A DNA stretch of 64,000 nt. Source: Planctomycetota bacterium (GTDB lineage: Bacteria > Planctomycetota > Phycisphaerae > SM23-33). The stretch is from the NCBI GenBank assembly GCA_016235825.1, contig JACRIL010000102.1, positions 751-64,750 on the forward strand. The letters are read 5' to 3'. A program made the position numbers and the translations under genes. Shown here in pieces: positions 54,474-57,003 of the stretch; the first letter of the stretch is position 1, and each line of letters opens with the position of its first letter. Below the pieces are notes generated by a model, which saw only the letters and a list, made by a program, of their open reading frames with translations, was not told the origin of the DNA and made no database searches.

Positions 54474-54983
54474 TCACTTTCCCGCCCGCTCGTTGCAGCT
54501 ACAACGGGGGTCCGCGCAGGGCTTCGCCGCCGCGGACAGCTTGCGGTTCATCCACCGCCATCCCAAGAAAAGCGACAGGAACGTAAGGACCGCGCACAGC
54601 GGCTTGGCCAAGGGCAGAAACCAAGCACCCAGCAGGTTGAGGTAGACCGCCAACATAGGCGAGCCGCAGCAGCCGGTCAGGAAGCAGCCCGCCACGGCCA
54701 ACACCCCGCCAAGGGACAGTCCACCAAGGGCGGCGGTCCCGGCGGCGCGCTGGCGATGCTCTCGATAGCGCCGCACAGCCCAGGCCACAAAAGCGCCGGA
54801 CATTCCATACGAGATTCCCATCCAGTAATCCTGCGCCCGAACATACTGGTCCATCCCTGATATGGATGAGACGGTTTGGACCGTGGCCCACCGGTCCTGC
54901 GCCGAGTCGTGCTCGGGGTACAGACCGCGAAGCACAAAGTGTCCCACAGCCACGGCCAGGAAGACTGCCAGCGGCAGAATCAT
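54474..54983 (-). CDS. four-TM Cys-rich membrane protein with a MerT-like CC-x2-P-x9-GAW motif
   Basis: ATGA start/stop overlap with the upstream gene (54980-54983). The TM segment LTGCCGSPMLAVYLNLLGAW has the same spacing as the MerT TCCLGPLVLVALGFSGAW. The C-terminal KPCADPRCSC recalls the MerT cytoplasmic Cys pair. Confidence 0.6.
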   Translation of the reverse strand: MILPLAVFLAVAVGHFVLRGLYPEHDSAQDRWATVQTVSSISGMDQYVRAQDYWMGISYGMSGAFVAWAVRRYREHRQRAAGTAALGGLSLGGVLAVAGCFLTGCCGSPMLAVYLNLLGAWFLPLAKPLCAVLTFLSLFLGWRWMNRKLSAAAKPCADPRCSCNERAGK

Positions 54984-56581
54984 TCGACGTAGGGGTCGCA
55001 TGTGGCGGTCTCCGTTGTGGGCTGGGCTTTACGTACGCTCTTGGCCACGAAAACGAGCTTCCCGCCGATCTGCCGTGCCTCGCCTTCGGCGCGGACAAGG
55101 GTTTTTACCCCAGGCATCCCGCCCGTCCAGCGAACCGGCAACGTCAGTTTCGCGCATGTTACGGTCTGGCACTCCTCCCATTCCTGACGGTCGATCAGGG
55201 CCAGCATGTTTTCGCCAGGCGAGACGGAGCTGACGATGCCTTCGACCGTCACCAGCCCCGGATAGCGGTCCACGTTTCGCATGTACTGGTCCACCCCCAA
55301 CACGACCGGCCTTGTCGCGACCGGCCCGCCAACACGGGGCGCCGGCCATTTCTGAACTGCCCAGACGATCGCGACGACGGAAACCAGTCCGAGTACGCAA
55401 GCCAACACGATCCATTTTCTCATCTGAGTGCCTTTCTTGCCGGGAATGCACGATTCGCCTTGGCAGGAGCAGGCTTCCGATGTGCCTCGCTCCGGGGCGG
55501 CGTCTTGCACATATGGCTCGCCGGATGCCAGCGACCGTTCCGCGCGGGCCAGTTCTCTGCCCAGATAAGCCGCATGGTCCAGCCGTGAGACAAGGCCCTT
55601 GTCGATGGCAGGCAGGTAAACTTCGGCGGCGCTGCGGCCTTCGATCACCGTGTCCAGCACGCCCTCGTTGGCGTAATGCTCCATATTCAGGCGACGTTTC
55701 TGCCGGTCCGCATATATTACAAAGTAGCCGGCCGGGTCAGGGGTCATCTTCGCCGGGATGGAACCTCGAACGGTCGGCACAATCCGCGCATCGGAGTACG
55801 GTTCTGCGGGACCTGGGTTCCGGACAGCGATCTTTCGGGCGGCGGCCAGGATAGCTGCCGTGCCGTTTTCGCCGATCATGTCGATTACTTCCACCGTCTG
55901 CCGGAAGTGCTCGACGGCACTTGAGGAGATGTTCCGCAGGAATGGCCGCCTGCCTTTGGCGGCGACGATTCGGCCCTCGGCATCCACGCCCGATTGCGCC
56001 AACGCCAGAAGCGATTGGCCTGGCAAGTGCCCGACGGCCTGCCGGGAGTCCTCGCCGCAGACAATCAGGAAGCGGATATTGGGATTGGCCAAGACGTTGT
56101 GAATAACCCGCTCGATGCCCAGGTTTTCGGTCTGCATCATGCCGACGATGGCGATCTCCGGGCTCGCGGCCTTGGCAATCGCAACGGACAGGCCGCTGTC
56201 GGTGAGCGTGCAGACGGCCACGGGCGCTTGATAGCGCAAGGCCGCGTAGTCGCCCGCCAGGGGCGGCCAACCGGCGCGAAGTTCGACCGGACCCGCCGGG
56301 CAGGCTTCGCCTTCGATATTCAAGGCGTTCATCGCCGCGGCCGGATGGCATTCCTGGCAGCCGAGGCAGTCGTATCGCGCCTCAACCAACTTGGCCTTAG
56401 CCGCTCCAATCGCCTCGGCCAACTTTCCGGGTTGCCGGCCGGCGGGGATGGCCCGTTCGATAGCTTTCAGCGTGCCGTGCAGGCAACCGCACGCCCAGCA
56501 CTTGGCTGAACTGGCGGCGTGCCGCAGTTGACGGACGGCCTCTTCAACATCGCCTGATTTCGCCTCGCCCGGCTCGCTCAT
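54980..56581 (-). CDS. Cys-rich N-domain + MtrA-like (tetrahydromethanopterin S-methyltransferase subunit A-like, corrinoid-type) + DUF4346-like + TM helix + extracytoplasmic domain
   Basis: ATGA overlap with the arsR-family stop (56578-56581). GWPPLAGDYAALRYQAPVAVCTL, TENLGIERVIHNVLANPNIRFLIVCGEDSRQAVGHLPGQSLLALAQSG, GRRPFLRNI and FRQTVEVIDMIGENG parallel archaeal MtrA, including the His of the G-H-x-x-GQS corrinoid-ligand context. DPAGYFVIYADRQKRRLNMEHY is DUF4346-like. The TM helix is WIVLACVLGLVSVVAIVWAV. Confidence 0.75.
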   Translation of the reverse strand: MSEPGEAKSGDVEEAVRQLRHAASSAKCWACGCLHGTLKAIERAIPAGRQPGKLAEAIGAAKAKLVEARYDCLGCQECHPAAAMNALNIEGEACPAGPVELRAGWPPLAGDYAALRYQAPVAVCTLTDSGLSVAIAKAASPEIAIVGMMQTENLGIERVIHNVLANPNIRFLIVCGEDSRQAVGHLPGQSLLALAQSGVDAEGRIVAAKGRRPFLRNISSSAVEHFRQTVEVIDMIGENGTAAILAAARKIAVRNPGPAEPYSDARIVPTVRGSIPAKMTPDPAGYFVIYADRQKRRLNMEHYANEGVLDTVIEGRSAAEVYLPAIDKGLVSRLDHAAYLGRELARAERSLASGEPYVQDAAPERGTSEACSCQGESCIPGKKGTQMRKWIVLACVLGLVSVVAIVWAVQKWPAPRVGGPVATRPVVLGVDQYMRNVDRYPGLVTVEGIVSSVSPGENMLALIDRQEWEECQTVTCAKLTLPVRWTGGMPGVKTLVRAEGEARQIGGKLVFVAKSVRKAQPTTETATCDPYVE

Positions 56582-56958
56582 TTGTGTCGGTCCTTGGAGT
56601 CTTCCATCAGGCACAAGCCCCGTTCGAGGAGGTCAATGATGCAGGGGTCCATAATGCAATAGCGGATACTGTTGCCGTCTCGCCGATTGCACAGGATGCC
56701 GCGGTCAACCAACCGTTGAAGTTGATTGGAAATGCCCTGCGGCTTCATGCCCACCTCCTCAGCCAATGCCGACACGGGCATTTCTCCGTCGCGAGCCAGG
56801 GCGTGGAGGATGCGAAGCCGCGTATCGTTGGCCAACACCTTGAAGACGCCGGCCAGTTCGCCGGCTTCGCCCCGTTCGATCAACGGACGCTTCTTGATGC
56901 TCGGCTTGACCGGACAAGGCTTGGGCGGACAAGCGTAATTGCCAGATTGCTTCTTCAT
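56578..56958 (-). CDS. ArsR/SmtB family metal(loid)/thiol-responsive transcriptional regulator
   Basis: wHTH VFKVLANDTRLRILHALARDGEMPVSALAEEVGMKPQGISNQLQRLVDRGIL. AGGAG SD. Cys residues sit only in the N-terminal (CPPKPCP) and C-terminal (C..C..C..C) extensions. Confidence 0.85.
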   Translation of the reverse strand: MKKQSGNYACPPKPCPVKPSIKKRPLIERGEAGELAGVFKVLANDTRLRILHALARDGEMPVSALAEEVGMKPQGISNQLQRLVDRGILCNRRDGNSIRYCIMDPCIIDLLERGLCLMEDSKDRHK

Positions 56959-56981
56959 ACCAGGTCTCCTTAATCATACAC

Positions 56982-57003
56982 TATTACATTATGGCGTGTA
57001 ATA
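56982..57003. promoter_or_regulatory. candidate ArsR operator: perfect inverted repeat TATTACA-N8-TGTAATA
   Basis: It lies 24-45 nt upstream of the arsR-family ATG (56958) in the only intergenic space available for the operon promoter. Confidence 0.45.

Follow-up and report, generated by a model that had tools for sequence, protein, structure and literature searches.

Why would an ArsR-type repressor gene directly precede the gene for a cysteine-rich relative of MtrA, a corrinoid protein of archaeal methyl transfer, and what would these two share with a membrane protein that carries paired cysteines? The question is raised by three overlapping minus-strand genes (arsR, gene 2, and gene 3) in a 64,000-nucleotide stretch of DNA from a planctomycete (Planctomycetota bacterium, contig JACRIL010000102.1), which is referred to here as the window. 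All three are present where a preliminary description of this DNA had placed them, and they form one real operon, as supported by their overlaps, their recurrence in other genomes, and natural gene fusions. We consider it an even call whether this autoregulated operon encodes a thiol-relay uptake system for a soft metal that feeds a cobamide- and Fe-S-containing protein (the gene 2 product, hereafter the core protein). The families involved are named in databases only as DUF, as 'hypothetical' or, misleadingly, as MtrA; the system is new in kind, and its function is one that we infer.

The genes of the operon are:
56958-56578, minus strand: arsR, 126 amino acids (aa), with AAGGAG 7 nt 5' of its ATG
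56581-54980, minus strand: gene 2, 533 aa, whose ATG overlaps the arsR stop codon as ATGA (56581-56578)
55001-54474, minus strand: gene 3, 175 aa from the ATG at 55001 or 169 aa from the ATGA at 54983

Both of the ATGA overlaps by which the genes had been described as coupled exist. The second is probably not used as a start, because the ATG at 55001 is preceded by a GGAG at 8 nt and gives back to gene 3 the basic RR-x-LLP N-terminus that almost all of 121 homologues share. Gene 3 more likely begins at this upstream position, and its overlap with gene 2 would then be 22 nt. The comparisons that follow draw on a pattern scan with one genome per species, which gave 216 relatives of gene 2 and from which 80 loci were kept.

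The core protein

A protein of a Planctomycetes metagenome-assembled genome, annotated 'DUF4346 domain-containing protein [Planctomycetes bacterium]' (P0001), matches the gene 2 product at 100% identity. The gene 2 product divides into six parts, as read from profile matches, alignments, and an AlphaFold 2 (AF2) model scored by the predicted local distance difference test (pLDDT):
56581-56282, minus strand: N-domain, residues 1-100, a helical bundle with 7 invariant Cys (pLDDT >90)
56278-55805, minus strand: MtrA-type corrinoid-binding Rossmann domain, residues 102-259 (PF04208, E 7.6e-41)
55738-55502, minus strand: PterinBD-DUF4346 domain, residues 282-360 (PF14251, E 1.8e-22, 80.3 bits versus 29.6)
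55471-55448, minus strand: Cys tail C371-S-C373-QGES-C378, predicted to be cytoplasmic (family consensus CGC-x3-C)
55426-55352, minus strand: transmembrane (TM) helix, residues 386-410, a helix in the AF2 model and a hydrophobic stretch in the sequence
55303-55022, minus strand: OB-fold domain, residues 427-520, predicted to be periplasmic, with conserved Cys471 and Cys476

The MtrA-type domain may well bind a cobamide. In alignments with MtrA, its His185 falls on the cobalt ligand His84 and its Glu152 on the partner residue Glu54, and both residues are invariant over 107 sequences, as is the TENLGIE motif. The meander motif GAIPF-Y/F-x-EN reads GRRPFLRN here, so that G, P, and N are kept and A, I, and E are replaced. 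These alignments and the two Pfam matches bear out the MtrA domain with its ligand His and the DUF4346 segment that had been recognized earlier; the Cys cluster is present as well. The protein is nonetheless below the cut-off of every MtrA equivalog model (TIGR01111, 127.7 versus 249.15 bits; NF010654, 127.1 versus 279). A model of bacterial 390-aa 'MtrA' proteins (NF002128, PRK00964.1-6) comes closer, at 459.5 bits versus a cut-off of 568 that is not reached. This match runs from residue 11 to 375 against model positions 12-387 of 390, which indicates the same architecture in a more divergent sequence.

The N-domain has two cysteine sites. Site 1 is an invariant C28-x2-C31-x-C33, followed by H35 here and by His in most relatives. 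Site 2 is an invariant, ferredoxin-like C72-x2-C75-x2-C78...C94-P95 that could hold an Fe-S cluster. Profile matches to 4Fe-4S proteins are weak: Fer4_21 is found in 11 of 24 members (best E 0.024), and motif matches to NuoI and PsaC have E values of 0.02-1 (NuoI, 0.019). A BFD-like [2Fe-2S] domain, considered because of the C-x-C...C-x2-C spacing of the cysteines, was rejected. Its model Fer2_BFD matches only 1 of the 24 members, and this count together with the invariant CxxCxxC...CP makes a ferredoxin-like site the preferred, tentative assignment.

The DUF4346 domain is modelled as three strands and two helices, and none of the matches listed for it is to a solved structure. In the Cys tail, which forms the C-terminus of the usual 380-395 aa core proteins, C371 and C373 are conserved in at least 90% of the 107 sequences. 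The roughly 100-aa extracytoplasmic Cys-containing domain that had been noticed beyond the TM helix is a five-stranded beta-barrel with the motif C-x4-C-A-x-L-x-LPVRW. This OB fold is of the membrane-anchored periplasmic type (e.g., CcmE, YgiW/BOF), and a Pfam search with it came back empty. The preliminary description had likened the TM helix to that of MtrA. This comparison fails, since the helix and OB domain form a separate downstream gene or are absent in all but one of the 80 loci, and the helix is thus a gene-fusion feature and not the MtrA anchor.

Recurrence, fusions, and gene neighbourhoods

The 80 loci represent more than 12 phyla, among them Planctomycetota, Verrucomicrobiota, Acidobacteriota, Nitrospirota, NC10, Desulfobacterota, Chloroflexota, and Myxococcota; further loci occur in Alpha- and Gammaproteobacteria, Bacteroidota, Ignavibacteria, Gemmatimonadota, Bacillota, and others. 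A profile of the core protein matches 321 clusters at E <=1e-30 in a library clustered at 50% identity, and the family comprises thousands of sequences. Of the 72 loci where this could be assessed, 55 have arsR as the next gene upstream of the core, on the same strand. Among 69 loci, 27 have gene 3 and 28 the OB domain downstream (~40%), always in the order core, OB, gene 3. The TM helix and OB domain usually make up their own gene of 130-160 aa. Three gene 3 homologues that were sampled independently all fall within an arsR-core-OB-gene 3 arrangement.

Natural fusions connect the same partners. The core is fused to a following gene 3 in P0065 and P0085, and gene 3 to a following core in P0245, P0271, and P0290. 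An ArsR helix-turn-helix (HTH) precedes the core in P0308, and a TM helix and thioredoxin-like domain follow it in P0255. The core-TM-OB fusion of the window has one representative among the 80 loci and recurs in P0293, from a distant low-GC lineage. These fusions and the gene counts above substantiate the co-conservation of the triad on which the initial interpretation depended.

The MtrA and DUF4346 domains also behave as a reusable module. They are fused to an ICMT/PEMT-type membrane S-adenosylmethionine (SAM) methyltransferase, a thymidylate-synthase-like domain, PCP_red, and the ArsR HTH (examples are P0329, P0368, P0363, and P0308), and they stand alone, without the Cys-rich N-domain, in proteins of 260-310 aa.

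Other genes can take the place of the OB domain and gene 3. Thioredoxin-like and DsbD_TM/CcdA-like genes replace them in about 10 loci. Four Nitrospirota loci (L030, L040, L046, and L047) have the arrangement arsR-core-DJ-1/PfpI, with a CCSLC motif in the DJ-1 protein. In L030 and L047 a MerT-like gene (NF010314, E 2e-8 and 8e-6) lies downstream of DJ-1, and an APC-motif P1B ATPase is found further along. Some loci that lack the OB domain and gene 3 carry no replacement downstream.

The neighbourhoods point to thiophilic metals. A MerT above the Pfam cut-off adjoins the module in L046, L040, and L035, and in L075 and L085 a gene for a MerC-like protein separates arsR from the core. MerR-type regulators near the module score 114-145 bits against a cut-off of 150.85 for Hg-responsive MerR. 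In L084, a single strand carries merR, merC-merA (70% identical to Tn21 MerA), a secreted beta-propeller gene, the core, and a P1B ATPase. P1B ATPases (13 loci), RND/MFP systems (12), ArsC, ACR3, ChrA, and SHOCT proteins are frequent neighbours. Together with the cadmium-family ATPases that sister regulators control (see below), the MerT, MerC-like, MerR-like, and MerA genes beside arsR-core strengthen the suspected link to such metals.

Three loci contain short (~197-202 aa) ArsM-like SAM methyltransferases (L002, 7268-7861; L011, 9135-9728; L048, 6794-7402). The gene lies inside an arsR-core-gene 3 operon in the first two and ~2.9 kb downstream in the third. These proteins have lost the arsenic-binding cysteines (GCGNP reads GVGNP, and SNCV reads SNGV). 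The embedded proteins may supply methyl groups to the cobamide or may be unrelated passengers.

The regulator and its operator

Two predicted control elements precede arsR:
57003-56982, no strand assigned: putative operator, a perfect inverted repeat TATTACA-N8-TGTAATA, read from the sequence
57015-56988, minus strand: promoter-like TTGATT-16-CATAAT, a consensus match only, whose spacer and -10 hexamer overlap the operator

The perfect repeat that had been reported ahead of the operon is present, and its recurrence supports a role as operator of the arsR promoter. Its core, ATTACA-N8-TGTAAT, is unique in the window, where ~0.01 chance matches would be expected even with one mismatch. The exact core occurs once per locus, just 5' of arsR, in 32 of 100 fetched loci, and the family consensus extends to ATTACAC-N6-GTGTAAT.

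The first gene encodes an ArsR/SmtB protein (NF033788, 75.0 bits versus a cut-off of 55; HTH_20, PF12840, 46.3 versus 27; HTH_5, PF01022, 32.7 versus 22). It is far below the cut-offs of all specific equivalog models, including CmtR, BigR, and TsoR. The alpha-3 As(III) site ELCVCDL, which marks one ArsR subgroup and not the ArsR/SmtB family as a whole, is missing, and we obtain the same reading of EMPVSAL that was given before. Relatives carry ELCV with a single alpha-3 Cys.

Four cysteine positions are conserved among 59 homologues: C15 (81%), position 61 in alpha-3 (68%), C106 (85%), and C116 (85%). The window protein retains the three in the N- and C-terminal regions and has Pro at position 61. 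The preliminary description had confined its cysteines to the two terminal extensions. This is correct for the conserved C15, C106, and C116, but the unconserved Cys90 and Cys101 lie in the winged-helix part. The protein of the solved structure PDB 6UVU is a clear member of this subfamily (E 1.2e-37), and a literature search found no paper that describes it.

The same subfamily precedes a different cargo in Rhodoferax ferrireducens (L098, 6958-9527) and Geobacter sp. SVR (L099/L100), whose ArsR proteins are 95% and 74% identical to the 6UVU sequence. This sister regulon consists of a 54-61 aa Cys-rich peptide with the motif GCGPGCGCH (..SSGCGPGCGCHVEN..) and a ~640-aa CPC P1B ATPase of the cadmium family (TIGR01512, 461 bits versus a cut-off of 313.5). 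The ATPase lacks an HMA domain, and its last TM region contains an unusual Cys (QEAGC). In Rhodoferax, an ATTACA-N8-TGTAAT operator is located 24 nt upstream and a complete mer operon 3.5 kb away. In Geobacter sp. SVR, the ArsR-peptide-ATPase unit is duplicated beside Y1 transposase genes. The peptide, the cadmium-family ATPase, the operator, and the nearby mer genes argue that the subfamily senses a soft divalent metal. By analogy, the peptide suggests that CxC-type motifs like those of the core protein could bind the metal that is sensed.

The membrane protein

The gene 3 product belongs to a family of more than 2,063 homologues that are all annotated 'hypothetical', none with a Pfam domain. 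Its AF2 model consists of four long helices (pLDDT 70), and two cysteine motifs stand out:
54674-54657, minus strand: GCCGSP motif at a helix break within the membrane, invariant in alignments of 23 and 121 sequences
54518-54495, minus strand: C-terminal cluster C-ADPR-C-S-C, predicted to be cytoplasmic, read from the sequence

The four helices and the CxxxxCxC tail agree with the topology originally proposed, and a variable cluster (CC, CxC, or CxxC) is found at the end of most homologues. For gene 3 as for gene 2, sidedness in the membrane is predicted.

The likeness to MerT is harder to judge. The reported CC-x2-P-x9-GAW motif is present in the window as GCCGSP-x9-GAW, and GCCGSP is invariant. 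The GAW portion is unconserved (relatives mostly have GAA or GAx), and homology to MerT is not statistically established. Searches of Pfam, NCBIfam, and PDB sequences with gene 3 give only sub-threshold matches. The MerT models score 10.8 bits versus 32.9 (PF02411, E 0.5, with matches to 2 of 23 family members) and E 0.056 (NF010314). Profile-profile alignment with hhalign against authentic MerT proteins from plasmids and related loci gives a probability of 44-46% (score 31-32) with a 23-sequence profile and 8% (24.8) with a 121-sequence profile; reversed and shuffled controls score 21-22 and 10-18. A more diverse MerT profile did not raise the score. The register of these alignments is constant, with GCCGSP on Cys24/Cys25 of MerT and the next helix on MerT helix 2. 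The MerT-like part of gene 3 is then helices 3-4 of the four modelled, compared with three TM helices in MerT.

We do not classify gene 3 as a MerT because the family models miss it and the profile-profile probability is unstable. A MerT-like mode of action is nevertheless what we would expect, given its motif and Cys tail, its natural fusions to a cytoplasmic Cys-rich protein, and the presence of MerT or MerC in the same slot of other loci.

Two further proteins with vicinal cysteines were encountered. A gene 3 homologue at 3903-5255 of L028 has a ~200-aa C-terminal extension with a further TM segment and CC and CxxC motifs. On an IncC plasmid (L087, 966-1067), a 'GDCCVxC domain-containing (seleno)protein' is annotated right after merP in a mer operon, and it represents another small vicinal-Cys family of such operons.

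A proposed mechanism

If the operon is a metal-uptake system, it could operate as follows. Without metal, the ArsR protein would sit as a repressor on ATTACA-N8-TGTAAT over the promoter. Metal would bind to three or four conserved ArsR cysteines in the N-terminal arm, alpha-3, and the C-terminal helix, and the DNA would be released. The Cys pair of the periplasmic OB fold could then capture metal and pass it to the intramembrane GCCGSP cysteines of gene 3 and on to its cytoplasmic Cys tail, following the logic of the MerP-to-MerT relay. From there the cytoplasmic core would receive it at its Cys tail and CxxCxC site, and the His-on cobamide of the MtrA-type domain might then act on it, with the ferredoxin-like CxxCxxC...CP Fe-S site keeping the cobamide redox-active. 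The likeliest reaction would be methyl transfer between Co-CH3 and the metal(loid), in either direction; two-electron Co(I) chemistry, such as reduction or dealkylation, is an alternative.

Cobamide and Fe-S binding, the topology, the direction of metal flow, the identity of the metal, and the reaction are all points that we infer. A transformation in the cytoplasm would be expected because the import of a toxic metal makes sense only then, as in mer. The conserved Glu-His site, the methyltransferase-type fusions, and the embedded ArsM-like methyltransferases argue that catalysis may take place at cobalt. Soft metals of the Hg, Cd, and Pb type are better supported than As and Sb. Mercury species are the leading candidate, at a likelihood below even. 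That the core protein carries out genuine metal-carbon bond chemistry is rather unlikely. The most specific version of the proposal is speculative to a similar degree: a relay-fed cobamide enzyme that would form or cleave the metal-carbon bonds of Hg or another soft metal in vivo, independently of HgcAB and MerB.

Several observations weigh against this interpretation. No mer, ars, or efflux genes were found among the immediate neighbours of the operon in the window, and across the other loci Mer-type genes occur, by raw count, in only a minority of those that lack gene 3. The MerT models do not recognize gene 3, and the probability of a MerT relationship swings from 8 to 46%. One of the four conserved sensory cysteines is absent from the window ArsR, and the 4Fe-4S matches of the N-domain are weak. 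The operon does not encode a methyl donor enzyme of the MtrH or MeTr type. His-on cobamides favour methyl-cation chemistry, and the methylation of Hg(II) by HgcA is thought to need Cys-ligated cobalt. Mercury methylation would not obviously be a detoxification. The variants with thioredoxin plus DsbD_TM and with DJ-1 fit a redox function at least as well. Finally, as had been supposed, no function for bacterial MtrA/DUF4346 proteins is described in the searchable literature: full-text searches for the DUF4346, PF14251, and MtrA-like families returned no study, and there is no experimental work on their members.

Alternative explanations

The absence of a methyl donor enzyme would be less of a difficulty if the core protein did not catalyze any reaction. 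It could be a Cys-rich sponge or chaperone, or a store or sensor of vitamin B12, in a system for non-catalytic metal buffering or cobalt/cobamide homeostasis in which gene 3 moves a metal (possibly cobalt) or a thiol ligand. The seven invariant N-domain cysteines and the Cys tail would suit such a protein, and the GCGPGCGCH peptide of the sister regulon is chaperone-like. We nonetheless regard this explanation as improbable. The invariance of the Glu-His pair and TENLGIE over 107 sequences goes beyond the needs of a passive binder, and other proteins combine the MtrA-DUF4346 unit with methyltransferase-type domains. Sensory sites made up only of Cys are typical of soft metals and not of Co or Ni in the ArsR/SmtB family, and the import of a toxic metal merely for storage would be unusual. 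Control by a B12 riboswitch was considered and rejected, as Rfam gives no cobalamin riboswitch match in the window.

A second explanation takes thiols rather than metals as the signal and is about equally improbable in our estimation. ArsR would be a BigR/SqrR-like dithiol switch for persulfide or disulfide stress in a reactive-sulfur or envelope redox system. The core would deliver electrons to a membrane thiol relay (gene 3, or thioredoxin and a CcdA-like protein elsewhere) that reduces periplasmic targets, or it would methylate sulfide or thiols. The usual acceptor of the MtrA methyl group is itself a thiol (coenzyme M). Among specific NCBIfam models, BigR gives the regulator its best match, though at 36 bits against a cut-off of 155. 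BigR-type sensors have cysteines in alpha-3 and the C-terminal helix, where most relatives of the window ArsR have conserved Cys (ELCV in alpha-3). The replacement of the OB domain and gene 3 by thioredoxin-like and DsbD_TM genes (~10 loci) or by DJ-1/PfpI (4 loci) points in the same direction, as do the rhodanese, thioredoxin, and DsbD genes in some neighbourhoods. Against this, the cargo that this regulator subfamily and its operator control elsewhere is a cadmium-family P1B ATPase with a Cys-rich peptide, and MerT, MerC, MerR, and MerA genes accompany the module. The window ArsR has also lost the alpha-3 Cys that such a dithiol switch would need, and it is left without explanation why an electron donor should need a cobamide.

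The annotated role of these proteins, as subunit A of a tetrahydromethanopterin (H4MPT) S-methyltransferase in planctomycete C1 metabolism, is very improbable and was rejected on gene context and equivalog scores. In its favour, PF04208 and the NCBIfam MtrA models do match, JGI calls relatives 'tetrahydromethanopterin S-methyltransferase subunit A', and Planctomycetes carry H4MPT-linked genes. Against it, the protein stays below the cut-off of every MtrA equivalog model. The genes next to the operon in the window include no mtrB-H and none for coenzyme M or H4MPT (in keeping with the lack of methanopterin genes nearby that was first remarked on), and the neighbour clusters inspected for the 80 loci showed no conspicuous case. 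The constant partner is an ArsR repressor, the neighbourhoods are metal-resistance islands, and many phyla in which the family is found lack H4MPT pathways.

Genomic surroundings

The operon is set among housekeeping genes. Its immediate neighbours encode a deoxynucleoside-kinase-like protein (dNK), PanC, PanD, Lgt, and a TPR/PDZ protein. Recent horizontal acquisition finds no support in base composition, as the GC fraction of the operon (~0.63) compares with 0.57-0.65 in the flanks. A simple scan found no intrinsic terminator 3' of gene 3.

Several other elements were noted in the window. A 6S/SsrS RNA gene is located at 13878-14028 on the plus strand (Rfam, 49.2 bits versus a gathering score of 46.4). 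Two copies of the Acido-Lenti-1 RNA motif lie on opposite strands ~100 nt apart, at 32212-32257 (minus, 43.9 bits) and 32356-32401 (plus, 47.6 bits; gathering score 37). Between the PDZ gene and the gene upstream of it, at 52080-52310 on the minus strand, a 76-aa open reading frame with two CxxC pairs (MKIACPYCRK...CPGCERIF) has a weak match to Trm112p-like zinc ribbons (E 9.5e-4), and its expression is only possible.

Significance

HgcAB are, to our knowledge, the only known mercury-methylating enzymes, and MerB is the only well-understood demethylase. A function for the core protein could bear on which genes are responsible for 'oxidative' or mer-independent degradation of methylmercury and for the formation of methylmercury in settings with little hgcAB. 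The core protein offers a definite candidate for mercury chemistry of this kind or for a cobamide-dependent transformation of Cd, Pb, As, or Sb. If the proposal is true, there would be a second route of mercury methylation or demethylation that is independent of HgcAB and MerB, metal-inducible, and horizontally mobile. This route would exist in Planctomycetota, Nitrospirota, NC10, Verrucomicrobiota, Acidobacteriota, Desulfobacterota, and others.

The proposal would give the bacterial MtrA homologues their first function, and it would also assign functions to the gene 3 family, the OB domain, and the orphan structure 6UVU. The annotation of bacterial MtrA homologues as methanogenesis enzymes misleads inferences about methane metabolism from metagenomes. 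Even if the chemistry differs from what is proposed, the regulator/operator pair and the gene fusions provide a clean and portable experimental system.

Comparison with known systems

We know of no characterised metal system that uses an MtrA-type cobamide protein. One close analogy is to mer (MerP-MerT/MerC-MerA/MerB). Both would combine a periplasmic Cys pair, a vicinal-Cys membrane helix followed by a cytoplasmic Cys cluster, and a cytoplasmic enzyme with Cys tails, and both would be metal-inducible, as is proposed here for the arsR operon. In other genomes, genuine MerT, MerC-like, MerR-like, and MerA proteins are encoded beside the arsR-core module. The differences are that the regulator is of the ArsR and not the MerR type, that the periplasmic part is an OB fold whereas MerP has an HMA/ferredoxin-like fold, that gene 3 has four TM helices and misses the MerT model, and that a putative cobamide/Fe-S protein stands in place of a flavin disulfide reductase or organomercurial lyase.

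HgcAB is a striking analogue of the system. Both include a corrinoid protein, a ferredoxin-type Fe-S module, a Cys-rich C-terminal tail, and membrane association, and hgcAB is likewise co-transcribed with an upstream ArsR-like regulator that controls it. The corrinoid domains are not homologous, since the one here is an MtrA Rossmann domain with a His ligand and that of HgcA is CFeSP-like with a Cys ligand and a Cys-containing cap helix. The core also has one CxxCxxC...CP motif compared with two in the 2x[4Fe-4S] ferredoxin, joins the Fe-S module and corrinoid domain on one polypeptide, and would be served by a dedicated uptake relay. The operon had been called distinct from HgcAB; this is accurate for ancestry, but its logic closely parallels that of arsR-hgcAB.

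Archaeal MtrA, a subunit of the Na+-pumping methyl-H4MPT:coenzyme M methyltransferase (PDB 5LAA, 5L8X, and 8Q3V), shares with the core the His84/Glu54 pair and TENLGIE, and the core keeps a G-x-x-P-x-x-x-N remnant of the meander motif. It differs in having MtrB-H partners and in lacking the Cys-rich N-domain, DUF4346, and the Cys tail. The TM helix of the core stems from a fused downstream gene and connects to a periplasmic domain, and the context of the core family is metal resistance and not methanogenesis.

The ArsR/SmtB metalloregulators CmtR, CadC, and ArsR share with the regulator a winged HTH, an inverted-repeat operator that is predicted to lie over its own promoter, and sensory cysteines from the N-terminal arm and C-terminal helix. 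The window ArsR differs from them in its lack of ELCVCDL and in scoring below all specific equivalog cut-offs. CFeSP/AcsCD also carries a cobamide and has an Fe-S cluster of its own that serves redox activation, an arrangement that the core may share although the proteins are not homologous. ArsM occurs in a similar ArsR-controlled metal(loid) context, and ArsM-like genes are sometimes part of the operon. The core protein is not homologous to ArsM, which agrees with the initial view that the system is distinct from this SAM-dependent enzyme.

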